Source: an uncultured Acidobacteriota bacterium
Lineage (GTDB): Bacteria > Acidobacteriota > Thermoanaerobaculia > Gp7-AA8
Direction: 5' to 3'
Length of the DNA: 64,000 nt
Assembly (NCBI GenBank): GCA_963822445.1
Contig: CAWGHO010000002.1
Span: 1,664,001 to 1,728,000 of the forward strand
Part shown: in pieces, positions 1-15,736 of the stretch
Position numbering within the stretch: the stretch's first letter is position 1
Layout: each line of letters opens with the position of its first letter
Program-made: the position numbers and the translations under genes
The notes under the pieces: model-generated
Databases searched by the model: none
The model's input: only the letters and a program-made list of their open reading frames with translations
What the model was told of the DNA's origin: nothing

Positions 1-393
1 TCGCCGGTTGTCGTCCGCAACGTCATCGTTGACCGCACAATTCGGCGCGCCCTCGATCGCCAGGTGCGCTGGAACAAGATCCGGTATTCGTTCTCGCACG
101 CGCTGTATCTCTGCGAGCTGCTCACGAATCCGCTGCCGCTGGCGATCGTGGCCGCGCTGTTCGAGCCGAGCGCGTTGCCTTTGCTTGTCATCGCCGCGCG
201 CTACGTGCAGATGGCGACGCTCAATCATGCGACGGGCGCGGGCCTGACGTGGCGGCAACTCGCGCTGACGCCGATGCTCGATCTGCTCATGCTCTACGCG
301 TGGTTCGTTCCGTTCTTCTCGAACGAGGTGACCTGGCGCGGATACCGGGCGCGCATCGGCCGCAACACCGAGATGGTTCAGCTCGCGGCCTGA
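1..393 (+). CDS. Glycosyltransferase, ceramide glucosyltransferase/HpnI-like; 5'-truncated at window edge
   Basis: Frame 1 is open from base 1 (SPVVVRNVIVDRTIRRALDRQVRW). RQxRW motif followed by hydrophobic segments and the typical C-terminal 'VTWRG'. Confidence 0.7.
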   Translation, partial: SPVVVRNVIVDRTIRRALDRQVRWNKIRYSFSHALYLCELLTNPLPLAIVAALFEPSALPLLVIAARYVQMATLNHATGAGLTWRQLALTPMLDLLMLYAWFVPFFSNEVTWRGYRARIGRNTEMVQLAA

Positions 394-1040
394 TCGGCGT
401 ACAGCCAGCGGAACACGTAAGTCGCCGCGAGCGCCCCGGCAACCTGCGCCGCGATGAAGGCCGGCATGTCCATCAGGCGAATGCCGCTGAACGTGCTCGT
501 GAACGCGCGCGCGAGCGTCACCGCCGGATTCGCGAACGACGTTGAGGCCGTGAACCAGTACGCGGCGGCGATGTACGCGCCGACGACGATCGGGACGACG
601 TTCGGCCGCTTGCCGGTTGCGTGGATCACTGCGACCAGCCCGAACGTCGCGATGAACTCGCTGAAGATCTGTGCCCCGCCGGCGCGGGGACGGATGAAGG
701 TCGACAGCGGCGCGAGCTCGAACATGAGATGCGCCACGACCACGCCGAGCATTCCGCCGGCGAGCTGCGCGACGACGCGCGGGAGAACCTCGACTCGCGC
801 AATGCCGCGCTCGATTGCCGCGGCCATCGTGACGACGGGATTGAAGTGCGCGCCCGAGATCGGCGCGAAGGCGTAGATCAACGCAACGAGCGCCGCCGCG
901 CTGGCGAAACTGTTGGCCAGGAGGGCCACGGCGTCGTTCCCGCCGGAAAGGCGCTCGGCCATGACGCCTGAGCCGACCACAGCCGCCACGAGGAACATCG
1001 TTCCGATGAGCTCGGCGACGGCGACGCGGATTCTCTGCAC
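378..1040 (-). CDS. MIP/aquaporin-family channel, AqpS-like (arsenic-associated subfamily)
   Basis: AELIGT, SGAHFNPVVT and YWFTASTSFANPAVT motifs; about 6 TM. Start set at GTG 1040, 6 nt after a CATACT -10-like hexamer. Confidence 0.9.
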   Translation of the reverse strand: MQRIRVAVAELIGTMFLVAAVVGSGVMAERLSGGNDAVALLANSFASAAALVALIYAFAPISGAHFNPVVTMAAAIERGIARVEVLPRVVAQLAGGMLGVVVAHLMFELAPLSTFIRPRAGGAQIFSEFIATFGLVAVIHATGKRPNVVPIVVGAYIAAAYWFTASTSFANPAVTLARAFTSTFSGIRLMDMPAFIAAQVAGALAATYVFRWLYADQAAS

Positions 1041-1164
1041 GCCGGAAGTATGTGACACGCGCGCGGCGCGCGGCGGTCGCAAAAAAAAACTGCCTTGTCT
1101 GTACTTTTTGGTTCCTCTCCAGGACTTACCGGGCAGAAGTCAAAAAACAAGGAGAGTTTCTCAA

Positions 1165-1680
1165 ATGAAAAAGTTCGCAGTTGTTGCAGCAGGAATGATG
1201 ATGTTCGCCGCCGTTGCATCCGCCGACACGAGCTCGGGCACGCTCGAGGTCACCGGCACGGTGGCCAGCTCGATCAACCTGACCATCGAATCCGCCGGCG
1301 GAACGACCAGCGGCACCGGTACGGCCGCGGCCACCTCGGCCCTCGGCTCGATCGCCAAGTACAGCGCGGCCCCGACGGGCTTCACCATGGCCCGCGGCGC
1401 GTCCGACTGGACGCTTTCGTCCACCGTCGGCGTGAAGGTCGACAAGGCCAACCTCACCAGCACCGACTACACGCTCACCGCGGAGCTCCAGAGCGCGCCG
1501 GCCTCCGGCATCGTCTGGAAGCTCAACGGCTCGACTCTTAGCGACAGCGCGGCCAGCACGCTCACCTCCACCGGCACCTACGGCTCGACCGGCTCCTACT
1601 CGTGGGACATCGTCGTGGCCGACAGCGCTGCCGCGGCGGCGATCGACAACATCATCAGCTTCACCGCCACCTCCAACTAG
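1165..1680 (+). CDS. Secreted Ser/Thr/Ala-rich beta protein, probable major pilin (fimbrial subunit)
   Basis: AAGGAG SD; signal peptide MKKFAVVAAG...VASA; N-terminal 'GTLEVTGTV' donor-strand-like segment; C-terminal 'IISFTATSN'; first gene of a 4-gene operon. Confidence 0.65.
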   Translation: MKKFAVVAAGMMMFAAVASADTSSGTLEVTGTVASSINLTIESAGGTTSGTGTAAATSALGSIAKYSAAPTGFTMARGASDWTLSSTVGVKVDKANLTSTDYTLTAELQSAPASGIVWKLNGSTLSDSAASTLTSTGTYGSTGSYSWDIVVADSAAAAAIDNIISFTATSN

Positions 1681-1699
1681 CCCACCCACGGATCCGCCG

Positions 1700-2182
1700 A
1701 TGAGCACGCGCACGTTTTCAGGCCTCGGGGCGGTTGCTGTTTCCCTCACACTAAGTTTTTTCCCAAATCTGCAGGCGGGGGGCCGCCAGCGCGCTGTGGC
1801 GGTCCCCCATTCTTCCTCCGATCTGTCGCTCACCTTCATCGGCTCCGGCCGCGCCGAAACGGCGATGCTCGATGCCGGATCGATCTCGTGGCGCGGAGGG
1901 CGGAACCGGTTCTCGGTCACGACGCGGACGTTCGGCGTCCGGATCGGACCGGCGTCGCGGGAAGCGCGGGCCACGGCCACGCTGCGCGCGTTTCTCGCCA
2001 CGCCGGATCCACACGCGACGATCCGGATCGACGGCGTCGTCCTCGGCACGGCGCCGCGCGTGATCCAGCGCCACGCGCCGATCGGCATCGCCGTCACGCA
2101 TCGCCTCGAAATCGAAGTTCCGGTCAGCGCGTCCGCCGGGCCGCTGGCCGCGACGATCGGCTGGGAAGTCACCAAGGAATGA
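1700..2182 (+). CDS. Secreted protein, probable minor pilin
   Basis: Signal-like N-terminus; beta-rich; ends 'TIGWEVTKE'; sits between the pilin and chaperone genes. Confidence 0.5.
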   Translation: MSTRTFSGLGAVAVSLTLSFFPNLQAGGRQRAVAVPHSSSDLSLTFIGSGRAETAMLDAGSISWRGGRNRFSVTTRTFGVRIGPASREARATATLRAFLATPDPHATIRIDGVVLGTAPRVIQRHAPIGIAVTHRLEIEVPVSASAGPLAATIGWEVTKE

Positions 2183-2187
2183 TCTTC

Positions 2188-2949
2188 ATGCGCACCTTCA
2201 TCTCTGCTCTCTTCCTGCTGTCGGCGGTCACCGCGTTCGGGGCCGAGGACGGCACGCTCTCGCTCAGCCCGGCCGTAGTCATGCTCCGCGGCGATCATGG
2301 CCAGAGCACCACGCAAACCCTGACCCTGACGAACGGCACTTCGCGGCCGTTCTCGTTCGATCTGGTCGCACAAGACGTCGTCATCACCGATGGAAAACGA
2401 CGGTTCGTCGAGGCCGGATCGATCAGCGGCAGCATCGCCGCCACTGCGGTCTTCTCGCAGACGCACGTCGATGTACCGCCGGGCGACACCGTGAACGTGA
2501 CCGTCACAGTCACAGTGCCGCCCGACACGGCGCAACGCGCCGTCATCGCGTTGTTCCGCGGCACGAACAAGGTCATGTCCGGCAACGTCCCGATGGTGGC
2601 GTCGCTCGGCACACTGCTCACGTTCCGGATCGGCGATGTGATCGAGCTGTCCGCCGAGCCGCTGATCGTCCGTCCGCAAAGCGCCGCGGCAAACCTGGCC
2701 GTCACTCAGACCTGCAGCAACAAGGGACGCGAGCCGCTGCTGGCGCGCGGGGTGATGGCCGTCGTGAACGAGAGCGGCGCACTGATCGGCAAGTCCACAC
2801 TCGATCCGCGCCGCTTGCTTCCCGGCGAGTCGACCGAGATCACCGGCGAATACGGCGGCGAGCTCGATCCCGGTAAATATCGCGTCTTCGTTACCTACGA
2901 CTATGAGGGTGGAACGGTCACCAAGCTCGCCGAGGTGGAGATCCGTTGA
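2188..2949 (+). CDS. Periplasmic pilus chaperone-like protein (two Ig-like domains, PapD/EcpB-like)
   Basis: Signal peptide; 'LSLSPAVV...QTLTLTN', 'VPPGDTVNVTV', 'NKG' and 'LLPGE' patterns. Alternative start at 2179. Confidence 0.65.
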   Translation: MRTFISALFLLSAVTAFGAEDGTLSLSPAVVMLRGDHGQSTTQTLTLTNGTSRPFSFDLVAQDVVITDGKRRFVEAGSISGSIAATAVFSQTHVDVPPGDTVNVTVTVTVPPDTAQRAVIALFRGTNKVMSGNVPMVASLGTLLTFRIGDVIELSAEPLIVRPQSAAANLAVTQTCSNKGREPLLARGVMAVVNESGALIGKSTLDPRRLLPGESTEITGEYGGELDPGKYRVFVTYDYEGGTVTKLAEVEIR

Positions 2950-5723
2950 GAGCGATCGCGCTTTCGGTTGCGCTCATGTCCGCAATCGGAGCGGCCGCCA
3001 CGGAGGCGGGCTCGCCGATGTTCGCGGCCAGGCGCGCGAACGCGGCGTACACGCTGGCCGTGCGTGAATCGCAAATCATCCCCCGGCCCGGTGCCACCGC
3101 GGCCTGGGCCGTCGACGCCACGGTCGTGGACGTCACCGTGCACAACGGAAGCGTGCGCCTCTTCGGTCGCGCCGCCGGCCGCAGCAACGTCATCGTGCTG
3201 AGCGCGGACGGCGAGGTCGTTCTGGACGTCGTCGTCAAGGCAAATCCCTCCGCCGTGGCGACGCCGAAGCGTGAGGTGCAAACCGATCGCGGCTCCGCCG
3301 AAGTGCGCTACTCCAGCGCCGCCCGCGAACTGCAGAACACCGTCACCGCCGCCCGGGAGACGAAACGCGGCAAGACCGAGCTGCACGTGCGGACCGTGCA
3401 TCACGCGGAGCAGCCGGCCGGCGATCGCGCGCGAACGAGCGTCGCCTCGGCGTCGCTCCGCTTCTTCAACAAGGACCGCGAACTGACGCTGCTCGATCGA
3501 GAGGTCGACCACTCACCGCTCACGCTCCGCCACACGCCGGTCAGAGGCATCCACTACCTCGACGAACACTGGCGGCTGCATGCGGGATACACCGCTTACA
3601 CGACCTATCAGAGTTTCCTCGTGCCGGTCGAGCGCGAGTTCGTGGCCGGCGGCGGCTACGCCTTCCGGACCGGCGCAAATTCGCGTCTCACCCCGACGTT
3701 CTTCGCGTACGAAAACGGCACGGTGCTCTCGTTGCTGTACGACTATGACGACCGCGAGGGTCTCGCGCTCCGTGCGGAGGCCGGCTACAGCGGCGGACTC
3801 GGCGGCGCCCTGCAACTGGCGTATGCCTCGAACCGCCAGCAGGCGCGCGCCGACATTCGCTATCGCGGCGAAGACTTCGCCGTCGTTTCGGCCGGCAGTC
3901 CGCGCGGCCTCCTCGCCGACGCCTCGTGGAGCCGCGAATACGGATTCGGCTCGACTGCGGCCGCGTCGTTTCAGGCGAGTGGCGCCGGCGGCTCGCGCGT
4001 CGCAGCCGGATCGGCGGACATCGAACATCGAGTCAGTGAGCGGCTAGCGCTCACGGGCGGAGCATCGTACGGTTCATTCGATGGACGGCGGAGCCTCACC
4101 GTTCCGGCGGGCGTGCGGCTCGATTTCGCGCGCGGCGGCATCGCCGCGCTGTATCGCTGGTCGCAGTCGCACGCGAACCGCGGTGGCCACGGCTTCCGGG
4201 TCTCGGGACGGGCGTCCCTGGGCCGTGCGTATCTCTCCGGATATGTCGACCGCCAGCAGAACGCGCCGACGCTGGAGGTGATTTTCGACGAACAGCCGGA
4301 GCTCGCCGTCGCCCTCGCCGAGCTCGGAATCGTGGCGACCTCCCCGGCCGACATCGCCCGTGCTCTGCGCGAGCAGGCGGCGCTGATCGAGCTCGGATAC
4401 ATCGAAGGCGTCACCGTCGACTTCGCGCCTCTGCGCACGCAGCTCGGCATCGAGCTCGGATTCCTCGGAGGCACGGCGGCGCGCCACCAGTTGCGCGCGC
4501 GCGCCATGCGCAGCGTCACCGAGAGTGTCGCGAACCGGCGTGTGTCCACCCTTGCGTCGCTGACGTACTCCCGGCGGCTCAGCGCCTCGACCGACCTGTT
4601 CGCCGGCTACACGTACTGGCGTACGGAACGGCGCGGCGAAGAGCCGCGCGAAACACCCTATGTGGAAGTGGGCCTGCGCCAGCGGTTCGACGGCTTACCC
4701 GCGATTCCCGGCCTCGGCGGATCGATCTCCGGCGTCGTCTTCGCGGACGAGAACCTCGACGGCGTCGACGACGGCACGCCCGTGACGGCCGAGGTAGAGC
4801 TCGACGGATCGCAGAAGAAGACCACGAACGAGGATGGAACGTTCACCTTCACCAACGTTCCCCGCGGCGCGCATCGCCTCTCTGCGCGCATCCCCGGCCG
4901 GCCCGACGCATACTTCACCACGCCGTCGCGCGTGGACGTGGAGACCGGCGAGCGCGTGGCCTTCGGCGTCGCCTACACGCCCGCGCGCCTTCAGGGCCGC
5001 GTGATCAGTGACTCGGGTGAAGGCCTGGCGAACGTGCGCGTGCTGCTCACGCGCGGCGTGCATCAGGTCATCGCCACCACCGAGAGCGACGGCTCTTTTG
5101 CCACCGCGGCCGCGCCCGGCGAATGGCAGGTCTCGCTGCTCTCCGACTCCGTTCCGGCCGGCTTTTCGCTCAGTGGTACCGAGGCGCGCGAGGTGATGCT
5201 CGAACGATCGCGACCGCAGGACGCCAGCTGGACGCTGCGCGCGCACCGGACTGTCACTGGTGCGGGCGCAGCACCGAACGCAGAGATCGACGTACGTCCG
5301 CTCGGCAAACGCGTTCGTGCGGACGCCGAGGGACGGTTCTCCATCCGCTCGCTTCCGGCGGGCGAGGTCACCCTCATCGCGGGCGGCGTCGAGCATCGTG
5401 TGACGTTGCCGAGCTCTCCCGCGACGAAGCACATCGATCTCGCGCCGAGAGCAGCCGTGTCGCCTGCAGTACCGATAGAGGTCAGAGGCGAGCGGCACGA
5501 CTCGACCCGCTGGGGCGTCGCGATCGGCGCCTATCGCGTGTACGCGAACGCCGTCGCCGTGGCGGCGCAGGCGCGCCAGCACGGCATCGCCGTCGAGCTC
5601 GATGACCGCGGCGGACTGGTCGTCGTCCGCTCCGGGCCGTACAGCTCGCGTGAGGCAGCGACCGAGGCCGCCGCGCGGCTGACGAAGGCCGGAATGGAGG
5701 CGATCGTACTGTCCATAAAATGA
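2946..5723 (+). CDS. Outer-membrane usher-like protein with SdrD-B/carboxypeptidase-regulatory-like repeats and a C-terminal SPOR domain
   Basis: Signal peptide; long amphipathic beta-strand region; 'SISGVVFADENLDG' SdrD-B-like motif; C-terminal 'VAIGAY..YANA...VRSGPYSSREAA' SPOR signature. Confidence 0.65.
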   Translation: MRAIALSVALMSAIGAAATEAGSPMFAARRANAAYTLAVRESQIIPRPGATAAWAVDATVVDVTVHNGSVRLFGRAAGRSNVIVLSADGEVVLDVVVKANPSAVATPKREVQTDRGSAEVRYSSAARELQNTVTAARETKRGKTELHVRTVHHAEQPAGDRARTSVASASLRFFNKDRELTLLDREVDHSPLTLRHTPVRGIHYLDEHWRLHAGYTAYTTYQSFLVPVEREFVAGGGYAFRTGANSRLTPTFFAYENGTVLSLLYDYDDREGLALRAEAGYSGGLGGALQLAYASNRQQARADIRYRGEDFAVVSAGSPRGLLADASWSREYGFGSTAAASFQASGAGGSRVAAGSADIEHRVSERLALTGGASYGSFDGRRSLTVPAGVRLDFARGGIAALYRWSQSHANRGGHGFRVSGRASLGRAYLSGYVDRQQNAPTLEVIFDEQPELAVALAELGIVATSPADIARALREQAALIELGYIEGVTVDFAPLRTQLGIELGFLGGTAARHQLRARAMRSVTESVANRRVSTLASLTYSRRLSASTDLFAGYTYWRTERRGEEPRETPYVEVGLRQRFDGLPAIPGLGGSISGVVFADENLDGVDDGTPVTAEVELDGSQKKTTNEDGTFTFTNVPRGAHRLSARIPGRPDAYFTTPSRVDVETGERVAFGVAYTPARLQGRVISDSGEGLANVRVLLTRGVHQVIATTESDGSFATAAAPGEWQVSLLSDSVPAGFSLSGTEAREVMLERSRPQDASWTLRAHRTVTGAGAAPNAEIDVRPLGKRVRADAEGRFSIRSLPAGEVTLIAGGVEHRVTLPSSPATKHIDLAPRAAVSPAVPIEVRGERHDSTRWGVAIGAYRVYANAVAVAAQARQHGIAVELDDRGGLVVVRSGPYSSREAATEAAARLTKAGMEAIVLSIK

Positions 5724-5738
5724 ACGCAGTCGCGTAAC

Positions 5739-5763
5739 GGAACGGTTGCCTCATTCGCTCGTT
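5739..5763 (+). promoter_or_regulatory. Candidate ECF-sigma promoter GGAAC-N16-CGTT
   Basis: GGAAC 5739-5743, 16-nt spacer, CGTT 5760-5763, upstream of the REC-ECF gene. Confidence 0.5.
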
Positions 5764-5832
5764 CCTTTGTTTTCATCGACTTACGTGTGGCTTGCCTCTT
5801 GATCTATCTCTGGCGAGACGATGGGAGGCAAT

Positions 5833-6669
5833 GTGTCCAGAATTCTGGTGGTCGATGACGATGTGACGCTCGTCGAGGGCATTCGCGCGATGCTCGACGT
5901 GCACGAGATCGAGTCCGAGGGAGCCTGGGACTGCGACTCGGCGGAGCAGCTGGTCGCGGGACAGTTCTTCCCGGTGATCCTCGCCGATCTGCGGATGCGC
6001 AGCGAGGAAGACGGGTTGCGCCTGATCGAGGCCGTCCGCCGCATCAGCCCACGCTCGCGTGTGGCCACGATGACGGGATATGCCGACGAGGCCACCGAGG
6101 CGCGGCTTCGCGAATGCGGCTCGGAGCTGGTGCTGCGCAAGCCGCTGGGCGAAGAGGAGCTCATCGCCGCGCTGCGGCACATGCTGGAGGTCGTCGACGC
6201 GGCAGCGGACGCGCACGCTGAGGACGATGAAGGGCTGTACGCCGCGACGATCGACACGTTGCAGGCCATTTCTCGCGGCCGCTACGGATTTCCGGCGGAA
6301 GACGTCGAGGAGCTGGTCCAGGAGACGTGGCTCCTCTTCCTCGAAAAGCGGCACCTCGTGCGTACACCGAAAGCGTGGCTATCCGGCACGATCGCAAATC
6401 TTTGCCGCCAGGAGATCGAGCGCCGCACCCGCAACCGCGCGCGCACCGGCGAGATGTCGGAGCCCGCGGTCGTTCCGGCGGACGACGCGGTGCTGGCGGT
6501 GCGCCAGGCCCTGGCGCGCCTCGACGATCGCTCGCGCACACTCTGCAGCCTGATCGGCCTCGAACAGCGATCCTACGAGGAAGTGAGCATGGCGGAGAAC
6601 CTCCCGCTCGGCAGCATCGGTCCGTTGTACCTGCGCGCGAAGAAGAAGCTGCGGCTGGAGTTGCAATGA
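5833..6669 (+). CDS. Receiver domain fused to an ECF sigma factor (REC-sigma2-sigma4)
   Basis: REC residues: VVDDD, ILADL, MTG, RKP. Sigma2: DVEELVQETW...AWLSGTIANLCR. Sigma4: ALARLDDRSR...SYEEVS...PLGSIGP...RAKKKLR. GGAGG SD before GTG 5833 (alternative ATG 5821). Confidence 0.85.
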   Translation: MSRILVVDDDVTLVEGIRAMLDVHEIESEGAWDCDSAEQLVAGQFFPVILADLRMRSEEDGLRLIEAVRRISPRSRVATMTGYADEATEARLRECGSELVLRKPLGEEELIAALRHMLEVVDAAADAHAEDDEGLYAATIDTLQAISRGRYGFPAEDVEELVQETWLLFLEKRHLVRTPKAWLSGTIANLCRQEIERRTRNRARTGEMSEPAVVPADDAVLAVRQALARLDDRSRTLCSLIGLEQRSYEEVSMAENLPLGSIGPLYLRAKKKLRLELQ

Positions 6670-6676
6670 GACAGGT

Positions 6677-7114
6677 CTAAGGCGCGGTCGGGTGATGCGG
6701 AGACTCGTTGAGGACCAGCCAGTACGACTGCAGCTGACGCGCGGTCTCGACAAAGCGCGCGAAATCGACGGGCTTGCGAACGTAACCGTTCGCGCCGCGG
6801 TCGTAGCACTCGGCGATGTCCGATGCCCGGTCGCTCGACGTCAGCATGACGACCGGGATGCGGCGGGTGCGCTCATCGGTGCGGAGACGCCGCAGAACGT
6901 CCAGGCCGCTGAGACCGGGCATGTTCAGATCGAGCAGAACGACGCGCGGCATGGCTGACGGATCGCTCTTCGCCCTCTCACTCGCCTCGAAGAGAAACGC
7001 CAGGGCCTGGGCTCCGTCGCGCGCCACTTCTAGCGGCACGCCGGGGCTCGCGCGCTGAAAGGCGCGCCGGGCCAGGTCGATCTCGTCTTCGTTGTCTTCG
7101 ACCAGGAGAATCAT
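6677..7114 (-). CDS. Single-domain response regulator, Rcp1-like
   Basis: ILLVEDN, LLDLNMP, MLTSS, GANGYVRKPVDF, YW motifs; ATGA overlap with the upstream kinase. Confidence 0.9.
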   Translation of the reverse strand: MILLVEDNEDEIDLARRAFQRASPGVPLEVARDGAQALAFLFEASERAKSDPSAMPRVVLLDLNMPGLSGLDVLRRLRTDERTRRIPVVMLTSSDRASDIAECYDRGANGYVRKPVDFARFVETARQLQSYWLVLNESPHHPTAP

Positions 7115-9090
7115 CGATGTCGAGTGTCTGCGTGAGAATTCAAAGTCCAATGAAACCGCGCTCCGCGGCCCGGCTGGCCATCGGCCCAGATGTGGCCGCC
7201 GTGACGTTCGACGATGCGCTGCACTGTGGCCAGGCCGATTCCCGTTCCGGGGTAGTCGGCGTCGGAATGGAGCCGCTGAAACGGCGTGAAGAGTTTTTCG
7301 GCATAAGCCATGTCGAAGCCGGCTCCGTTGTCGCAGACGAGATAGACCGGCTCTCGCCTGTCCTCATGCACTCCGAACTCGATGACCGCCTCGGCCTCGC
7401 GGGCCGTGAACTTCCAGGCATTGCCGAGGAGATTTTCGAGCAGCACGCGCATCATGCGCGGGTCGGCACAAGCGTTGACGTCCGGTTGGATGATGACGCG
7501 CGCGTTCCGGTGCGGCGAGGCTTTGATCAGGTTGTCCGTGATGTCGCGGACCATTGCGGAAAGGTCGACGGTCCTGGGGTGAATGGCCGCGCGGCCAAGA
7601 CGGGAGAGCTTGAGCAGGTCATCGATCAGTTCGGCCATACGACGTGACGCGGCCTGCACGCGCTGCATGTAGCCGTGGGCGCGCTCGTCGAACAGCGTGC
7701 CGTAGTCTTCGGCGAGGGCGGTGGTGAATCCGTCGATCGTGCGCAGTGGCGCGCGCAGATCGTGAGACACCGTGTAGCTGAACGACTCCAGTTCGCGATT
7801 CTTCTGTTGCAGCTCTTCCACGAGTCGCGCGCGCGTTTCGGCGAGCTCGCGGGCCGCTGTTGCCTCCGATGCCTCGAGCTCCGCGCGCAGAAGCTGATTG
7901 CGAATCTGGCGATTTTCCTCCTCGAACTGCCGGCGCCTGAGCTGGGCGCGAACGCGAGCGCGCAGAACCTCGAGATGGCTGGACTTGGAAAGATAATCGT
8001 CCGCCCCGGCCCCGAGCCCCTCGATCATGGCTTCGCGGTCCTCCATCGCCGTCAGCATGATCAGCGGAATGTCGCGGAGTCCGGGGGCCTGCTTGATGCG
8101 GCGGCAGGTCTCCTGCCCGCTGATGCCGGGCATGAGCAGGTCGAGAAGGATGCAGTCCACGTGCTGTACGGCGAGCATCTCCAGAGCCTCCTCACCGGAA
8201 TGCGCCAGGATCACGTCGTAGCCTTCGCCGGACAATGCCTCCGCGAGCAGATGAAGAAACGTGGCGCTGTCATCGACGGCCAGAATCTTCTTGGGGCCGA
8301 CCAGACTCGACGTCGTTCGCTCTTCGGTCGCACGCGACGAGCGAAGCACGGCTGCGACGCGAGCCATGACGACGCTCGGATCCTCGTCTTTCCGCACGAA
8401 GGCGTCAGCGCCGGCGTCCAGGGCGCGCAATTCGGCGGCCGCGTCGTTCGAGCCGGTCAACATGACGCACGGCGTCCGCCGCAGCGCTGCGTCGAGGCGG
8501 ACACGCCGGATCACCGTCGCTCCGTCCATGCCGGGGAGTACGTCGTCGACGATGATGGCGCTGGGCCGCGCGTCTCCCGCGACGCGCAGGCCTTCTTCAC
8601 CGCTGAGGGCCGTGAGCACGTGATAGTCGAGCTGCTCCAGTTCCGCTTTCAGCTCCTGCTGGAACGTGACGCTGTCATCGATGATCAGCACCGGCATGCG
8701 GTCCGCCGTTGCCTGTGTGCGATGTGCGTTGGCCAGCTCCCGCGCTCGTGCCACGAGGTAATGAACGTCATACGGTTTGCCGACGTATTCGTCGGCGCCG
8801 GTCGTCAGCCCGCGAATGCGATCCTGCACCTCGGCTTCGCTGGAGAGAAGAATCACCGGCAGGTCCGCGATGCGGGGATCGCTCCGAAACTCGCGAAGCA
8901 GATCGATGCCGTCGCCGTCCGGTAAGCGGACATCCAGTACCGCCACGGCCACGCCGTCGGTGCGGACCACCTGTCGCGCTTCGGCGGCGGTGCCACATGG
9001 ATGCACGCGCAGGCCGGCATGCTCGAAGGCCTCGGCGAGGTGCATGCGCACCGTCAGACTGTCATCCACGATGAGAACGAGCGGCGTCAT
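7111..9090 (-). CDS. Hybrid kinase: three REC domains plus HisKA/HATPase (Cph1-like core)
   Basis: Three xxDDS REC repeats; FSYTVSHDLRAPL H-box; NAWKF, DNGAGF and GTGIGL boxes. Confidence 0.92.
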   Translation of the reverse strand: MTPLVLIVDDSLTVRMHLAEAFEHAGLRVHPCGTAAEARQVVRTDGVAVAVLDVRLPDGDGIDLLREFRSDPRIADLPVILLSSEAEVQDRIRGLTTGADEYVGKPYDVHYLVARARELANAHRTQATADRMPVLIIDDSVTFQQELKAELEQLDYHVLTALSGEEGLRVAGDARPSAIIVDDVLPGMDGATVIRRVRLDAALRRTPCVMLTGSNDAAAELRALDAGADAFVRKDEDPSVVMARVAAVLRSSRATEERTTSSLVGPKKILAVDDSATFLHLLAEALSGEGYDVILAHSGEEALEMLAVQHVDCILLDLLMPGISGQETCRRIKQAPGLRDIPLIMLTAMEDREAMIEGLGAGADDYLSKSSHLEVLRARVRAQLRRRQFEEENRQIRNQLLRAELEASEATAARELAETRARLVEELQQKNRELESFSYTVSHDLRAPLRTIDGFTTALAEDYGTLFDERAHGYMQRVQAASRRMAELIDDLLKLSRLGRAAIHPRTVDLSAMVRDITDNLIKASPHRNARVIIQPDVNACADPRMMRVLLENLLGNAWKFTAREAEAVIEFGVHEDRREPVYLVCDNGAGFDMAYAEKLFTPFQRLHSDADYPGTGIGLATVQRIVERHGGHIWADGQPGRGARFHWTLNSHADTRHR

Positions 9091-10172
9091 TCGACGCCCC
9101 TGGCCGCGGCGAGATCCGCCAGTGACGGCCCGATCGCGCCGAGCGACAGAATGCGTTGCGCCGCCTTCAGGCGCACGGCCTCGCCAGGCATGCCGAATAC
9201 GACCGAGCTTTGTTCATCCTGCGCGATCGTCAGTCCGCCCGCCTCGTGTATGCGCAGAAGGCCGGCCGCGCCGTCGCGTCCCATCCCGGTCAACAGACAG
9301 GCCGCGGTCCGCTTGGCGTGCTCGCGCGCGAGCGATTCGAAGAGAACGTCCACCGACGGACGGGAGAAGTTTCGCTCCGGTCCGGTCGACAGCCGCAGCA
9401 CGCCGCGCTCGAGGGTCATGTGATAGTCGGGCGGAGCCATCGTGACGCGCCCACGCACGCTGGACAGGGCTTCACCCCCTTTGGCGTAGGTCACGCGAAG
9501 ATCCGACTGTCCATCCAGCCATTCCGCGAAGGAGACGGCGAACGTCGCAGCGATGTGCAGCACCAGCAGAATCGGCAGCGGAAAATCGGGCGGAAGCGAC
9601 CGAAGGATGTCGACGATGGCCGCCGGACCGCCGGTCGATGCGCCGATCGCCACGAGGTCGATGCCGTTCGTGTGGTGCAGGCCTCCGGCCTGCGTTTCAG
9701 CTTTGGTTACGGAGGCAGGCCGGAGGCCTACACCCCACCGGGCGAGTTTCGCGCGGGGGTGGGTGATGACTTTGATCTTCGAGATCAGGCGGACCGTCGA
9801 CACCAGGCGGCTGGCCCATTCGTCGGTGTTCTGATCGGCTTTCGGTTTGTCGAGGACGTCGACGGCGCCGGCGGCCAGTGCCTCGTACGTCTTGAACAGC
9901 TCGCCCCTGTTCGTCGACGACGAGACGACGAGGATCGGGGTCGGGAAGTGAGCCATGATGTATTCGGTCGCCGCCAGGCCGCTCATGACCGGAAGCATCA
10001 TGTCCAGGGTGATGACGTCGGGCCGCAGCTCTCCGCAGAGATGGATCGCGCTGCTGCCGTCGTGCGCTTCGCCGACGACTTCGATGTCCGGCGCGGCGCG
10101 AAGCACATCGATCAGGTACTGCCGTACCGTCAGCGAGTCCTCGACCACGACCACCCGGATCTTTCCGCTCAT
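9087..10172 (-). CDS. cheB: Chemosensory methylesterase (REC + CheB)
   Basis: N-terminal REC; GASTGG, RPSVDVLF and TGMGRDG motifs. Confidence 0.95.
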   Translation of the reverse strand: MSGKIRVVVVEDSLTVRQYLIDVLRAAPDIEVVGEAHDGSSAIHLCGELRPDVITLDMMLPVMSGLAATEYIMAHFPTPILVVSSSTNRGELFKTYEALAAGAVDVLDKPKADQNTDEWASRLVSTVRLISKIKVITHPRAKLARWGVGLRPASVTKAETQAGGLHHTNGIDLVAIGASTGGPAAIVDILRSLPPDFPLPILLVLHIAATFAVSFAEWLDGQSDLRVTYAKGGEALSSVRGRVTMAPPDYHMTLERGVLRLSTGPERNFSRPSVDVLFESLAREHAKRTAACLLTGMGRDGAAGLLRIHEAGGLTIAQDEQSSVVFGMPGEAVRLKAAQRILSLGAIGPSLADLAAARGVE

Positions 10173-12229
10173 GCGACCAGTTTCCGAATCGTCTCCAGCA
10201 ACTCGTTCTGATCGAAGTCGCTCTTGACGATGTAGGCGCTCGCGCCGGCATCGGCGCCGCGGCGGCGGTCTTCCGGTGCGTTCCGCGACGTGACCAGGAT
10301 TGCCGGCACCCGCCGCAGGTTGGCGTCGGCGCGCGTGCGCTCGACGAACGTGAAGCCGTCCATTCCGGGCATTTCGACATCGACGAGGAACAGCGAGTAC
10401 TCGTGACGCCGGGCCATGTCCAGGCCCTCTTCCGCCGACGCGGCGAGATGAACTTCGTAGCCGGCCGACTCCAGGATGCTCTGTTCGAGCATTCTCGTGG
10501 TGAGCGAGTCGTCGATGACCAGGATCGGTTGCGCCACGTGCGTCGCCTCGCGAGCCGTTGCCGTTTCGCCGCCCATGGCTGCGCGCACGAGCGCATCGGG
10601 ATCGAGGACGAGCTGCGGCGTTCCCTCCGTATCGAAGGCGGCGCCGATCACGACCGGCGCGGCCGGCGCGGTGGGCGGCAGCGGGCGCATGACCAGGTCT
10701 TCGATGCCGAGGATCCGCTCGACCGCCACGGCTGCCACGCCGCTGACCGCCGACAAAGTCACGGCTGAGACGCCGCCGGCCGCGCTCCGACCGTGCGACC
10801 GCGGATCGCGCAGCCCGAGAGGAGCGGACAGCGAAATGAACGGCAGCAGCGCACCGCCGTACAGGAGTGCCGGACCTTTCGAAGTCTGCGCGAGCTCATT
10901 CTTCTCCGTGCGCCGCGCCTGAAGAATCGACGCGACCGGGATTGCCGCCGTGACGCCGGACGTCTGCACCAGGAGCGCCTGCAGGGACGCCAGCGACACC
11001 GGAACGATCAGATCGACCGTGGTGCCCTGGCCCGGTTGCGTGTGAACCGCGATCTCGCCACCAGCGAGCGCCACGGCCTCGCGCACGACATCGAGTCCGA
11101 TTCCGCGTCCGGAGGCCTGCGTGACCGAGGAGGACGTCGTGACGCCGGTGGTGAAGAGCAACTTCAGGATGGCCTCGCCGCTGAGTGGCGCTGTACCCGG
11201 CGGCAACAGGCCGCGCTGTACGGCGACGTGCCGAACGGCGGCCACGTCGACGCCGCGGCCGTCGTCGCGGCAGCGGAAGATCACGCGCTTGTCCTGGTGC
11301 AGGACCTCGATGGTGACCGTTCCATGCGGCGATTTCCCGGCGCCCCGCCGTTCGACGGGCGTCTCGATTCCGTGCGCGACCGCATTGCGCACCAACTGCA
11401 CCATCGCCGGTTGCAAGGTCCCGAGAACATCTGCATCGACGCGGATGTCGCCGCCGCTCGCGTCGAACTCGACCTTCCTCCCCTGACTGCGCGCGACGTC
11501 GCGGGCGGTGCGCTCCAGCACCGAAAACAGCGTTCGAGCCGGCACGAGGCGCAATCGCTCGGCCACCGCCTTCGCCTGTCGCAGCTCGCGCTCGGTCGTT
11601 TCGAAGGCGCTGGCGAACCGGCGCTCGATTTCCGCCAGCGATGTGCGCAGTTCCTCGGCCATGCGCATGACTTTCGCGGTCGGCTCACCGCTGCGCGACG
11701 TCCGTGCCCGCGGCGCCGTGAACTGGCCGGCCAGCAGCTCCGCGATCTTGCGGGCATGCTCCAGATCGACGAGCGAGCGATGAATGCCGCCGAGATGCAC
11801 CCCGATCTCGGTGAGACTGTCGATGACGAGGTCGACCTCGCCGACCTCCGTGCGCACGGTGCGCAACCCCTCGCCCGGGCTCTCCCGGCGCGACGCGGTG
11901 ACCGGAGGAGCTTCAGGAGGCGGGAGAGCGGCTACTCGCGTGCCGATCCGGGCCAGAAGATCGAGGAGCTGTTGCAGTTCCTCGCCAGTGGCGGCCCGGT
12001 CGGTGCCGCGCAATGGCTCGAGCGCGTCCTCCATCGCGTGCGCGAGGTCGGCGATCTCTCCCTGCTTCACCACGCGCGCCGCCCCCTTGAGCGTATGCGC
12101 GAGGCGAAGCAGCGCGGAGACGTGCTCGCGAGCCGGCGCGCCTTTCTCCAGCGCCGTCACTTCCATTCCGATCCTTTCGACGATCTCTCGTGCTTCGGGC
12201 CGGAAGTAGCGATACGGGTCGTCTGCCAT
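10169..12229 (-). CDS. cheA: Hybrid CheA kinase with C-terminal REC (WspE/FrzE-like)
   Basis: Hpt AHTLKG; RNAVAHGIE, DDGRG, SGRGIGLDVV; CheW domain; C-terminal REC. Confidence 0.95.
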   Translation of the reverse strand: MADDPYRYFRPEAREIVERIGMEVTALEKGAPAREHVSALLRLAHTLKGAARVVKQGEIADLAHAMEDALEPLRGTDRAATGEELQQLLDLLARIGTRVAALPPPEAPPVTASRRESPGEGLRTVRTEVGEVDLVIDSLTEIGVHLGGIHRSLVDLEHARKIAELLAGQFTAPRARTSRSGEPTAKVMRMAEELRTSLAEIERRFASAFETTERELRQAKAVAERLRLVPARTLFSVLERTARDVARSQGRKVEFDASGGDIRVDADVLGTLQPAMVQLVRNAVAHGIETPVERRGAGKSPHGTVTIEVLHQDKRVIFRCRDDGRGVDVAAVRHVAVQRGLLPPGTAPLSGEAILKLLFTTGVTTSSSVTQASGRGIGLDVVREAVALAGGEIAVHTQPGQGTTVDLIVPVSLASLQALLVQTSGVTAAIPVASILQARRTEKNELAQTSKGPALLYGGALLPFISLSAPLGLRDPRSHGRSAAGGVSAVTLSAVSGVAAVAVERILGIEDLVMRPLPPTAPAAPVVIGAAFDTEGTPQLVLDPDALVRAAMGGETATAREATHVAQPILVIDDSLTTRMLEQSILESAGYEVHLAASAEEGLDMARRHEYSLFLVDVEMPGMDGFTFVERTRADANLRRVPAILVTSRNAPEDRRRGADAGASAYIVKSDFDQNELLETIRKLVA

Positions 12230-12232
12230 GGT

Positions 12233-13702
12233 TCATGCCGCTTTCTGCGGCTGGACCAGACGCAGCAGCCCGTGCGACAGCTGCGCGAGTTGCGCCGCGG
12301 TCTGAAGCGTCTGAATCGACGTCGTCTCCGTCTCGCGTGTGACCTGGGTCATGTTGCCGATGGCCAGGTTCACCTGCTCGACGGCCGTGGTCTGCTGCTT
12401 GGTGCTCAGCTCGATCTCGCGAGCCGCCTCGGTGGTCGTCGTCACCAGGTCGGCGATCTCTTTGAACGTGCTCGCGACGTCGGCGAACTGGCGCGTTCCG
12501 GCATCGACCGCCTTCGAGCCACTTTCGGTCGCCATCACGGTGGTGTTGACGGCGCCGCGCACGTCGTCGATCAGGGCGCGGATCTCCTTGGTCGACCCGC
12601 CGACGCGGTCGGCCAGCTTGCGAATCTCGTCGGCGACCACGCCGAAGCGCTTGCCGGTTTCGCCGGCGCCGGCGGCCTCGATGGTCGCATTGATCGCGAG
12701 GATGTTCGTCTGCTCGGCCAGCTCCGAAACGATGTCGAGCACGGCTCCGATCTGTTGCGACTTCCGGCCGAGGTCGAGCATGTGCTGCACCACGACGTCG
12801 ATCTGCCGGCGAATGCCTTCCAGCGACTCGTAAGTACGGGCCACCTTGTCCTCTCCGACGCGCGCGGTGCCGGCCGTTCGTTCGGCGACGTCTGCGACGC
12901 GTTGGGCGCTTTCGGCGATCTGGCGGGAAGTGGCGAGCAGCTCGCTGATGGTCGTCGAGATCTCGTTCATGGCCGTGGCGTGCTCCCGCGCGCCGGTGGC
13001 CTGCTCGTTCGCAGCGGTCTGCAGCTGCGCGGAGGAGCTCTGCACTTCGCTGACGGTCGATCCGATGTGTGCAGCGATGTTCCGGGTCAGCAGGTAGCCG
13101 ATCAGAGCGGCCATGGCGATGGCGGTCGCGGAGAAGATCACCACGATCCATGTCGCCGACCGCGCGCGCTCGCTCGAGTGGCGCCGGGCCTCCTCCAGGA
13201 CGCGCTCCTCATGATCGAGCATCGCCCCGATCTCCGCATCGAGGGCATTGCGCAGGGGAACCACTGTATTTTCGAATGCCCGCGACGCTTCCACGGCCGA
13301 AATGCCGCCGCGCCGCTGTTCGATGACGCGAGACAGCGATTCGCGGTGAGCCCGCTCGGCACGCACGACGGACTCGAGCAACTGCCGCTCGCGGTCGGTC
13401 TCGAGCGAGCCGCGGAGTTGCGCGGCGATGGCGTCGAATTCGCCCCTCGCCGAGCCGAGACTCGTCAGAAACGCGTCGTTTCCCGTGAGCAGGTAGCCGC
13501 GGCCAGCGGCCGACTTGCTCTCGGTGTTCGTCTTCAGCCGCTGGGTGTCCAGCAGGAGGTGCGAATTGACTCGGATCACTTCGTCCTTCGCCGCCACGAC
13601 GTGGCGCAGAGCGAGAACGGAGACGACTCCGATGATCAGGGCGACGGCGACGACCGCCGCCAGTCCTGCTGCCAGTCTGCGACCGAATGTCCAGTTCTTC
13701 AT
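12233..13702 (-). CDS. Methyl-accepting chemotaxis protein (2 TM, helical extracytoplasmic sensor)
   Basis: [37 protein letters not shown] signature; start at MKNWTFGRR. Confidence 0.95.
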
Positions 13703-13703
13703 C

Positions 13704-14201
13704 TCATGTCTCCTTTGGGGCGGGCGTACTCGTTTGCGGAAGCGCCGCGAGCAGGGCGGCAATGCTCAGGATCGAACGGACCACCGCGCCGTCGCGCACG
13801 GCTCCGTCGCCGAAGTTCCCGGTCATGCGGATCTGCGCCTCGAAGTGCTCGAACGCGAGCCCGATCGGCAGCTCGGACGTACCGGCCAGCGCAATCCAGC
13901 GCGGCTCGGATGCCGGCGGGTAGCCGAGCAGGACGGCGACGTCGAAGACGGGAATGATCAGGCTGCGGTAGCCGGCGATGCCGAGAAACGAGGACACGGA
14001 GGACGGCAGCGGCACGATTCGGCGGCCGGCGAGCAGCCCGGTCACCTCTGACAGGCGAAGCGCATGGGGGTGCCCGGCGATCGTCACGGCGATCAGCCTC
14101 TCGCCGTCCGCTCGTTCGCATTCCGGTGGAACGGCGAACGAACGATCGAAGTCGCGACGCAACAGCGCGGCGCGGTCTTCGAGGTGAATGCCGTCATTCA
14201 T
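13704..14201 (-). CDS. cheW: CheW-like adaptor
   Basis: FDRSFA N-terminus; IVPLP...[16 protein letters not shown]. Confidence 0.85.
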
Positions 14202-15736
14202 GCCGGACCTCCGCAGAGCGTGAGCTCGGCGCGGCAGAGATCGATCAGCGCCTCGCGGCTGAATCCGCCGCCGAACAGCAGCAGCCGGGAGACGTCTTCA
14301 CGCTCGAGCAGCACCAGCGCCTGGGCGAGATCGCGGCGTGCCGCCGCCCGATCTCCGCTCTTGCGCGCCAGGAGTCCGAGGTGCAGGCGGGGCGCGGCGA
14401 AGCTCGGATCGAGATACGCCGCGGTCTGGTCATGATCGATTGCGGCGGCCGGGTCGCGGGCTCCTTCGCGGCACAGCGCCATCAGATAGTGCGCGCCGGC
14501 GCTGAGCTCGTCGATGGCCAGGATGGTCCGGCAGACCTCCTCCGCCGCCGCGAGATCGCCTCGATGCGCGAGCAGCACCGCACGCAAGGCCAGCACGTCG
14601 GTGTTGCGGTTCGAATCGGGCGGAAGCGCGTCGACGAGGGCGAGCGCGTCGCCGTATCGCTCGTCGCGAAGCAGTTCGAACGCCGGAGCGAGATCCCAGT
14701 ACGCCGCGACGTCCCGTGCAGGTGCGGCGGAAGGTCCCGTTTGCGGTTTTTCCGTCAACGAGCGAATGCGCTCGGCCGAACGCGTGATCGTCTCGACCCA
14801 CGATTCCGCCGACTCGTACATCTTCGACAGGGGTGTCGCGTCTGCTTCGGCAATCTGGCGTATCTCGGGACCAGGCGGCAGCGCCTGCTCTGCTTCGGAC
14901 CGCTTCTGGTAATAAAACGTGTCGTGGGTATGCCGGAGATGAAACTCGCGGGACAGACCGCGCAGCGTCTCCGCGTGACCGAGAAAGAAAAAACCGCCGG
15001 GCAGGAGCGACCGGCAGATCCGGTCGACGACGCGCTGTGCGGCGTGCGGCGTGAAATACATCAGCATGTTTCTGCAGAAGACGATGTCGAACGCCGTGCC
15101 GTCCCAGAACCGCGCGTCATCGTCCGCGACGTTCCGCTCTTCGAACGACACCATCCTGCGGATGCGCTCATCGATCACGAGCTCGCGCCCGCGGGCGGCG
15201 AACCATCGGTCGCGCACAGCGTCGGGCGTTCCGCGCAACGACCACGGCGAATACCGGCCGGCCCGCGCTTTCTCGATCGCGTCCGGGTTTACATCGACGG
15301 CGACGATCCGCACGTCCCAGTCCGTCATCAGCGGAAGAAACTCACGAATGACGATCGCGATCGTGTAGGGCTCTTCGCCGGACGAGCAGCCGATCGAAGC
15401 GACGGTGAGCGTTGGCGCGGGCCGGCGAATACGCATCCTCGCCGGCAGCGCAATCTCGCGTAACGCGCGGAATTGCTCTTCATTACGGAAGAAGTAGCTC
15501 TCCCCGACGGTGAGCTCGCGGGCGAGCTCGCGCCATTCTCCGCCGGCATCGTCACGCACATGCCCGGCCGTTTCCAATGAGGTGACGTAATGGTCCGGCG
15601 TCGTCCGTTTTGCTTCGCTTCGCCGCTGCAGCACGTCGATGACGAAATTCAGTTTGAAAGCATCGAACTGAAGGCCGAAGCGATCGGCGATGACGCGTTG
15701 AAAACGCTGGATGTTCTGCAGTGCGGGAGGCATCAC
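14198..15736 (-). CDS. cheR: CheR methyltransferase with C-terminal TPRs (WspC/FrzF-like)
   Basis: TVGESYFFR, GCSSGEEPY, CRNMLMYF and LGHAE motifs; TPR helices. Confidence 0.95.
   Translation of the reverse strand: MMPPALQNIQRFQRVIADRFGLQFDAFKLNFVIDVLQRRSEAKRTTPDHYVTSLETAGHVRDDAGGEWRELARELTVGESYFFRNEEQFRALREIALPARMRIRRPAPTLTVASIGCSSGEEPYTIAIVIREFLPLMTDWDVRIVAVDVNPDAIEKARAGRYSPWSLRGTPDAVRDRWFAARGRELVIDERIRRMVSFEERNVADDDARFWDGTAFDIVFCRNMLMYFTPHAAQRVVDRICRSLLPGGFFFLGHAETLRGLSREFHLRHTHDTFYYQKRSEAEQALPPGPEIRQIAEADATPLSKMYESAESWVETITRSAERIRSLTEKPQTGPSAAPARDVAAYWDLAPAFELLRDERYGDALALVDALPPDSNRNTDVLALRAVLLAHRGDLAAAEEVCRTILAIDELSAGAHYLMALCREGARDPAAAIDHDQTAAYLDPSFAAPRLHLGLLARKSGDRAAARRDLAQALVLLEREDVSRLLLFGGGFSREALIDLCRAELTLCGGPA

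Follow-up and report, generated by a model that had tools for sequence, protein, structure and literature searches.

In a 64,000-nucleotide stretch of DNA from an uncultured Acidobacteriota bacterium (GenBank assembly GCA_963822445.1, contig CAWGHO010000002.1, positions 1,664,001 to 1,728,000 of the forward strand; the window in what follows), four genes encode the proteins P0001 to P0004, and we see an even chance that the products of this operon assemble a fibre outside the cell along a chaperone-and-pore route, working like the chaperone-usher and donor-strand pili. This reading draws on the logic of the operon, on an N-terminal strand that is present in P0001 and absent from its paralogue P0002, on the signs that P0001 is the major subunit, on a hint that P0003 is related to the DUF916 family and on the order of the modules in P0004. 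A more specific proposal is that the operon represents a third, hitherto unrecognised class of pili formed by donor-strand exchange, at home in diderm Acidobacteriota. Its soluble chaperone would be akin to the DUF916 chaperones of WxL pili rather than to PapD, and its non-usher barrel would combine an N-domain of the secretin type with a helical gate and a SPOR anchor to peptidoglycan; this we put forward tentatively and regard as somewhat doubtful.

Gene order and conservation of the operon

The four open reading frames (ORFs) lie on the plus strand in the order P0001-P0002-P0003-P0004 and fill the span from 1165 to 5723. An earlier reading of this DNA, made from the sequence alone (the sequence-only reading), had described four co-oriented genes for secreted proteins at this place. 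The ORFs are indeed found there, and all four proteins begin with a signal-peptide-like N-terminus as judged by eye rather than with a predictor. The coding sequences overlap at two junctions, where the stop of P0002 meets an in-frame ATG of P0003 (2179/2182) and the stop of P0003 meets the start of P0004 (2946/2949). For P0003 we favour the start at ATG 2188 because of the AAGGAA at 2171; the database copy of the protein has 253 residues.

A tblastn search recovers the complete set of genes, with order and strand unchanged, in 33 of 40 related loci. Contig ends truncate six of the remaining ones, four of which begin inside P0004, one inside P0003 and one inside P0002. The seventh, L035 (OY970380.1, 5462-6940), lies on a complete chromosome and keeps P0001, P0003 and P0004 with P0002 absent, thus representing a natural three-gene version of the operon. 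A lack of conserved gene order had been named beforehand as grounds for abandoning the pilus idea; the order is conserved, and in the 33 loci it is analogous to the clustering of subunit, chaperone and usher genes that characterizes chaperone-usher systems. Profile hidden Markov models find each gene as a single copy per source.

A genome scan assigns all 40 loci to metagenome-assembled genomes (MAGs) of Acidobacteriota. As seen in reference-genome collections, P0004 has 149 relatives at E ≤1e-3, and among the 120 of these that were listed the named ones are Thermoanaerobaculia or unclassified Acidobacteriota. P0003 has 740 relatives at the same threshold. The P0001 family comprises 379 clusters at 50% identity, and for one distant member the name gives a Terriglobia MAG as the source. 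Over 435 pairs, mean pairwise identity is 0.67 for P0001 and 0.57 for P0003, with P0002 and P0004 at 0.45 each, and P0001 is better conserved than P0004 in 399 of these pairs. The four proteins are currently annotated as 'hypothetical', 'Fn3-like domain-containing', 'SPOR domain-containing', 'cell division septation protein DedD' or similar, and the SPOR and DedD names steer annotators to cell division and away from surface fibres. A text search of the literature, judged by title and abstract, brought up nothing in print on this operon.

Domain architecture of the four proteins

P0001 consists of a signal peptide, a conserved 13-residue N-terminal strand of the G-T-L-x-V-T-G-T-V type and a beta-rich body, which stops 2-3 residues past its last strand. 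Profile comparison with hhalign identifies P0001 and P0002 as paralogues (94.6%; 97.5% and E 5e-12 with a wider profile and trimmed signal peptides). Mature residue 14 of P0001 is where the alignment starts, which leaves the first 13 residues without a counterpart in P0002. In the alignments both proteins stop just past their last strand. Among 123 representatives of the P0001 family, which are 27-72% identical to P0001, this N-terminal strand is the most conserved segment of the protein (2.36 bits), followed by the C-terminal strand (2.19 bits). Of the four proteins P0001 is the best conserved, and its gene is preceded by a strong Shine-Dalgarno sequence (AAGGAG, 8 nt 5' of the ATG) and followed by a conserved hairpin (see below). 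These traits fit a major structural subunit made in excess, and P0002 would be a rarer paralogue that accepts a strand and does not donate one. Thus, of the claim that the operon opens with a pilin and a minor pilin, the two paralogous small secreted subunits stand, with the first of them major-like, and significant profile similarity to classical pilins was not found.

Two 341-residue relatives, P0239 and P0246, contain two P0001-like domains in tandem and carry a similar donor-like strand 6-7 residues past the C-terminus of the first domain. Such a linker would suit a strand that folds back beside the last strand. The same linker geometry is used in engineered self-complemented pilins.

The mature N-terminus of P0002 is rich in arginine (R-x-R or R-R-R) and then in proline (about 1781-1810 in the window), and the conserved arginine cluster follows directly after the predicted signal-peptide cleavage site. 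We considered the motif as a mere by-product of the RNA hairpin and rejected this explanation, as the motif stays where the hairpin sits in the intergenic spacer.

P0001 has no Pfam, NCBIfam or PDB sequence match and P0002 no Pfam or NCBIfam match; NCBIfam indeed gives nothing above cut-off for any of the operon proteins of the window. The language-model neighbours of P0001 that have a Pfam family are an SCPU cluster (0.91; 15% of its members carry the family) and a WxL cluster (0.89), both scores being below the level that counts as more than a lead. SCPU and WxL are both donor-strand pilin families. Two W-x-L motifs are present in P0001, at residues 82-84 and 118-120 (1408-1416 and 1516-1524 in the window), and a double W-x-[LIVM] motif occurs in 19 of 24 close relatives and in 17 of 115 wider ones. 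The WxL profile itself (PF13731) matches none of 24 close and 63 distant members of the P0001 family. WxL domains are defined by a pair of Trp-x-Leu motifs (PMC9772566).

P0003 is predicted to be secreted, soluble and beta-rich, and it has no C-terminal membrane helix, because the protein ends without a hydrophobic stretch. Scanning 25 family members against Pfam at E ≤0.1, we obtained matches to fn3_5 in 24, Cep192_D6 in 14, FixG_C in 10, WxLIP_PGBD (DUF916) in four, HYDIN_VesB in two and Motile_Sperm in one; in P0003 of the window the fn3_5 match is marginal. The DUF916 profile (PF06030) exceeds its cut-off in one member, with 28.5 versus 27.3 bits over profile positions 21-108 of 121, and PF11797 (DUF3324) matches none of the 25. 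The N-domain of P0003 thus appears to be weakly kin to the DUF916 chaperone domain of the WxL pili. For the 'two-Ig chaperone' named in the sequence-only reading, these weak Pfam matches and strand-like sequence patterns make P0003 a candidate.

In P0004 the secretin pilus-N domain, the CarboxypepD_reg repeats and the SPOR domain that the sequence-only reading had recognized are all matched by Pfam above cut-off, and SdrD_B, which it had also named, stays under its cut-off (E 1.4e-5). Of 44 relatives scanned at E ≤0.1, CarboxypepD_reg is found in 44, the pilus-N domain in 41, SPOR in 36 and CooC_C in two (E 0.024). Pfam has nothing for residues about 100-590. Strand periodicity, an invariant terminal Phe, a weak TIGR03016 match at residues 527-581 and the language-model neighbours of this region, weaker points each, make residues 116-583 look like a beta-barrel: the nearest named clusters are the outer-membrane barrels BBP2_2 and TIGR03016 (0.86-0.89, leads only), and the number of strand-like segments is 18 by a crude propensity method and about 24-27 by eye.

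The helical insert reported earlier within the barrel is recovered at residues 441-497, which hold the only two helix-propensity segments of residues 110-585 in a crude Chou-Fasman profile. This insert is the best conserved part of P0004, with 3.56 bits per column compared to 2.84-3.04 in the rest of the putative barrel, and its profile finds no match among PDB sequences. Taken as a whole, the order of a periplasmic N-domain, a large barrel-like region with an insert and beta-sandwich C-domains seems to parallel the module order of ushers. We found no Secretin-family match in P0004 or its 44 relatives, and no TonB box, plug or receptor match in P0004.

The SPOR domain has its nearest solved sequences in CwlC (1x60; family profile E 1.8e-11) and FtsN. 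It is the least conserved folded domain of P0004, present in 105 of the 120 listed relatives and in 36 of the 44 aligned ones. The relatives that lack it (15 and 8, respectively, with L033 as an example on a complete chromosome) end past the third beta-sandwich domain. Describing the protein as 'SPOR-tipped' is therefore correct in that the match is solid, and too strong in that SPOR is not a fixed trait of the family. Where the domain is present, P0004 may reasonably be supposed to be tethered to the cell wall. The earlier suggestion of a tether to the wall or the division site is fair as regards the wall, and septal or polar targeting of P0004 is no more than a possibility. Apart from the matches discussed here, the profiles of P0001 to P0004, of the wide P0001 family and of the insert found SPOR, NOMO-type repeats and noise among PDB sequences.

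A possible assembly route and its alternatives

From these features we infer the following route. P0001 and P0002 would be exported by Sec and held in the periplasm by P0003. P0004 would take in the complexes through its periplasmic N-domain and its C-terminal beta-sandwich domains, and the growing polymer would pass the large barrel, gated by the conserved helical insert. P0001 subunits would be joined head to tail, with the N-terminal strand of one subunit completing the fold of the previous one. P0002 may have the same body and would be placed at the distal tip because, having no N-terminal strand, it could only accept a strand and not donate one. The SPOR domain would tie the platform to peptidoglycan glycan strands without stem peptides, which could bias it to septa and new poles.

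Several features of this scheme recall the chaperone-usher systems, including the Fim and Pap pili, the 'alternate' ECP/CS1 pili and the 'archaic' Csu pili with their SCPU pilins. The order of a major subunit, a second subunit, a two-domain-sized periplasmic protein and a large outer-membrane protein is alike, one subunit lacks the strand, and the N-strand pattern of P0001, G-T-[LIV]-x-[VF]-x-G-x-V, bears a non-significant resemblance to the FimA N-terminus. P0004 would similarly have periplasmic N- and C-modules around a barrel-like region, and EcpC has a CarboxypepD_reg-like C-domain. In contrast, the N-domain of P0004 is of the secretin pilus-N type and not PapC_N, the insert is helical, three C-domains and a SPOR domain follow the barrel-like region, the phylum is Acidobacteriota, and no component shows significant sequence-profile similarity to its counterpart. 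An usher is defined by a 24-stranded barrel, an internal plug, a periplasmic N-domain and two C-domains, and a PapD-type chaperone is a two-domain boomerang with a basic pair in its cleft. The pilins of these systems have an incomplete Ig fold that is completed by a donor strand, and their shaft subunits bear an N-terminal extension.

A number of results weigh against the fibre reading. No protein of the operon has significant homology to any pilus family, and the proposed folds and interfaces are predictions from sequence. Reference profiles were built from seven Escherichia coli K-12 fimbrial operons (7 ushers, 8 chaperones and 13 pilins). In hhalign comparisons with these, P0004 scores 9.8% overall against the ushers, which is not significant, with 0.3% for barrel against barrel and 0.2% for N-domain against N-domain. 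The C-domains give the sole raised score of 16 part-by-part comparisons (42.5%, E 2.6e-4 over 109 columns), likewise not significant yet counted in favour of the fibre reading. A profile of 16 EcpC relatives yields 0.3% with P0004, and P0003 reaches 2.7% against the chaperones and at most 4.4% for any domain pair. An apparent match of P0001 to the pilins (76.8%) proved to be a signal-peptide artefact, dropping to 1.7% after trimming and to 0.7% with the wide profile; all that survives is a brief stretch, below significance, in which the P0001 N-strand aligns with the N-terminal strand of FimA.

Pfam searches point in the same direction. The PapD_N, SCPU, WxL, Usher and PapC models match none of the family members scanned; in particular, at E ≤0.1, Usher, PapC_N and PapC_C are found in none of the 44 P0004 relatives, and PapD_N and PapD_C in none of the 25 P0003 members. 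The DUF916 link rests on a single P0003 member just above the cut-off. Searched against PDB sequences, the P0001, P0002 and P0003 profiles reach no solved pilin or chaperone, the sole weak match being to a Gram-positive pilin (E 0.09). Moreover, P0001 is unusually conserved, whereas pilins usually vary fast. Ushers are known to have a beta-sandwich plug, and in P0004 the insert is made of helices and comes late in the barrel region.

The silence of the sequence searches is a weak negative, because the Pfam models also miss EcpC and EcpB. In a control, Usher, PapC_N and PapC_C detect six of the seven E. coli ushers and miss EcpC, whose matches are limited to CooC_C, TcfC and a weak CarboxypepD_reg at residues 749-805. 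The Usher family is found on none of 120 EcpC relatives listed, and PapD_N misses EcpB of the E. coli K-12 ecp operon (L042). This case calls for caution in any screen that defines ushers by PF00577. It also softens the claim that CarboxypepD_reg-type domains are foreign to ushers, since the weak match of EcpC lies in its C-terminal part.

The operon can also be compared with the WxL/Elr pili of Bacillota, whose chaperone ElrE is of the DUF916-DUF3324 type. The weak PF06030 match of P0003, the WxL neighbour of P0001 (0.89) and the pairs of W-x-[LIVM] motifs hint at a likeness, which is limited in turn by the missing WxL Pfam match and by the fall of the double motif to 17 of 115 among wider relatives. 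Unlike that system, P0003 has neither a DUF3324 match nor a C-terminal membrane helix, an LPxTG anchor is missing and a putative outer-membrane protein is present. According to a 2026 preprint, ElrE, whose N-domain is the strand-donating DUF916, readies WxL pilins through donor-strand complementation, and donor-strand exchange then links them into polymers; the preprint reports the system in Bacillota only and gives 96.7% of its chaperones a membrane helix (10.64898/2026.10.17.759780). The domain pair had been named WxLIP in an earlier paper (PMC10599100).

Pam pili of the Candidate Phyla Radiation (CPR) are, by their description, a further parallel, being donor-strand fibres outside Proteobacteria with the same logic of a strandless single-domain tip as we propose for P0002. 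In the Pam study, the proposed tip is a subunit that has one domain and lacks the linker strand (PMC13278184). The Pam chaperones are membrane-anchored, the pilins have two domains and an envelope-spanning machine is not proposed, all unlike the present operon. P0004 shares the T2SS-T3SS_pil_N domain at residues 33-97 with Tad/Cpa-type secretins, from which it differs in having no C-terminal secretin domain, the part that forms their multimeric channel, and in that the rest of P0004 resembles a barrel made by a single chain. Its C-terminal 70 residues resemble the SPOR proteins FtsN, DedD, RlpA and CwlC, and glycan binding is predicted here from the sequence. SPOR domains attach to glycan strands without stem peptides, and such strands are enriched at septa (PMC6895207). 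What sets P0004 apart is that its SPOR domain comes after a putative outer-membrane barrel in a pilus-like operon and that part of the family does without it. We set the cyanobacterial CT pilus cluster aside, as it comprises different genes, glycosyltransferases included, and is confined to cyanobacteria.

On present evidence the operon cannot be filed under the chaperone-usher or the WxL families; if real, it would be a new variant of the donor-strand pili. The label 'chaperone-usher-like' given in the sequence-only reading is thus apt for the operon logic, for the usher-like module order of P0004 and for the weak DUF916 kinship of P0003, and it fails where significant profile similarity to ushers or PapD chaperones is concerned.

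We considered four other explanations. The operon might export and display a non-polymeric surface protein, with P0004 as the pore, P0003 as the carrier and P0001 and P0002 as monomers or a coat, and with no donor-strand exchange. Such a system would use the same four secreted proteins in the same conserved order, the conservation and high-expression signals of P0001 suit a coat or layer equally, and the lack of pilin homology is in keeping with it. It leaves unexplained why the most conserved segment of P0001, the N-terminal strand, is absent from the paralogue, why the tandem relatives have a strand between their domains and why P0003 gives a DUF916-type match, and we hold it to be rather unlikely. 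That the system is instead a true, extremely diverged member of the chaperone-usher superfamily, with P0004 as a genuine usher and P0003 as a genuine chaperone of the PapD kind, and no independent or hybrid invention, is distinctly unlikely in our view. The comparisons of barrel with barrel (0.3%), of N-domain with N-domain (0.2%) and of every pair of chaperone domains (≤4.4%) speak against it, as do the helical insert and an N-domain that is of the secretin pilus-N type and not PapC_N. In its favour are the failure of the Pfam usher and PapD models on EcpC and EcpB, which makes sequence silence weak evidence, the score of 42.5% between the C-domains and those of ushers, the CooC_C matches in 2 of 44 relatives (E 0.024) and the weak P0003 matches to Cep192_D6 (14 of 25), HYDIN_VesB (2) and Motile_Sperm (1), families which we take to belong to the PapD-like clan.

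P0004 could also serve as an envelope tether without any secretion, linking the outer membrane to peptidoglycan in the manner of OmpA, Pal or RlpA, with P0001 to P0003 as periplasmic partners. A SPOR domain in 105 of the 120 listed relatives, placed behind three spacer-like beta-sandwich domains, would be well suited to this role, and the function of the barrel as a pore is itself putative. A tether would hardly need a barrel-like region of about 470 residues with a highly conserved insert, nor a pilus-N domain of the type common in the outer-membrane channels of pili. SPOR is missing from 15 of the 120 listed relatives, which keep all else, and one would not expect a tether to come with a small subunit that is abundant, strongly expressed and accompanied by a paralogue. 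We rate it as highly unlikely. Least credible, and very improbable, is a substrate-uptake channel with accessory binders, for instance a specialised porin whose ligands would be bound by P0001 and P0002. Among named clusters, those most like the barrel region are indeed porin-type or PEP-CTERM-associated barrels (0.86-0.89), and CarboxypepD_reg domains occur in TonB-dependent receptors. In P0004 these domains are C-terminal, the TonB box, plug and receptor matches are missing, and no transporter or catabolic genes lie within the conserved neighbourhood of the related loci.

The fibre reading, if true, would have consequences beyond this operon. For a long time donor-strand pili were regarded as peculiar to Proteobacteria, and the reports of 2025-2026 in Bacillota (WxL/Elr) and CPR concern systems without an outer-membrane pore. 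The operon would carry the principle into one of the major phyla of soil, on an outer-membrane platform of another kind, and would show how a different part can take the place of the pore. It would further provide a natural pilus machine with its own peptidoglycan anchor, whose placement in the cell can be tested.

Regulatory elements and neighbouring genes

The coordinates of the genes, domains and regulatory elements are collected in the table. In 28 of 35 sources an A-tract and a TGTA[C/T]TT core like that of the window precede P0001, with the core at a distance of 48-88 nt, compared to a background of 0.012 per 200 nt, and a consensus scan identified no canonical sigma-70 site at the AT-rich element. 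The other seven sources (L029, L030, L031 and L033-L036), which form the most divergent sub-clade, have a sigma-54-like TGG[CT]-N7-TTGA element instead. This -24/-12 element is located 49-71 nt upstream of the P0001 homologue in all seven, against a background of 0.03 per 220 nt.

The GC-rich hairpin is found 3' of the P0001 gene in 30 of 30 loci tested, lying within the 5' coding region of P0002 in the clade of the window and in the spacer elsewhere. In 22 of these loci its strength is at or above that of 95% of same-size blocks (L001, L004, L005, L008, L009, L010, L015 and L018 fall short), and compensatory changes affect 9 of 15 pairs in the 11 loci with the hairpin in the spacer. We propose that it acts as an attenuator or stabilises the mRNA. 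Rfam gives nothing over positions 1-7000 of the window.

Coordinates of genes, protein domains and regulatory elements in the window
Feature	Position	Strand	Description
Promoter-like element	1081..1109	+	A-tract, about 12 nt, then core TGTA[C/T]TT at 1100-1106, 65 nt 5' of P0001 start
P0001	1165..1680	+	171 aa; proposed major fibre subunit
P0002	1700..2182	+	160 aa; diverged P0001 paralogue; proposed tip/first subunit
GC-rich hairpin	1777..1808	+	12-bp stem; inside 5' end of P0002, just past P0001 gene
P0003	2188..2949	+	253 aa; proposed periplasmic chaperone; alternative in-frame ATG at 2179 gives 256 aa
P0004	2946..5723	+	925 aa, TTG start; proposed outer-membrane assembly and secretion platform
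T2SS-T3SS_pil_N (P0004)	residues 33-97, 3042..3236	+	E 1.1e-6; 28.7 bits, cut-off 23
Putative beta-barrel (P0004)	residues about 116-583, 3291..4694	+	ends in a strand with invariant terminal Phe F581
Helical insert (P0004)	residues 441-497, 4266..4436	+	candidate plug or gate
Three CarboxypepD_reg/SdrD_B-type beta-sandwich domains (P0004)	residues 590-838, 4713..5459	+	CarboxypepD_reg E 2.2e-14
SPOR (P0004)	residues 853-922, 5502..5711	+	E 2.4e-13; 50.6 bits, cut-off 21
Receiver-Sigma70_r2 fusion	5821..6669	+	282 aa; domains by Pfam

The genes that flank the operon are unrelated to it. Upstream lies a MIP channel gene on the minus strand, and downstream the receiver-sigma fusion is followed by a chemosensory cluster on the minus strand. 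A receiver-Sigma70_r2 gene is located 94-180 nt downstream of the operon on the same strand in 11 of the 40 loci, all of them in the clade of the window according to a quick tree, and its product may be a dedicated regulator in this clade. The chemosensory neighbourhood is not conserved among the related loci. In the window the chemosensory-type cluster extends over 6677-15736 and encodes a response regulator, a hybrid kinase with three receiver domains, CheB, a CheA-like kinase, a methyl-accepting chemotaxis protein (MCP) and CheR. Further on, a receiver-EAL protein is encoded at 17818-18960, also on the minus strand.

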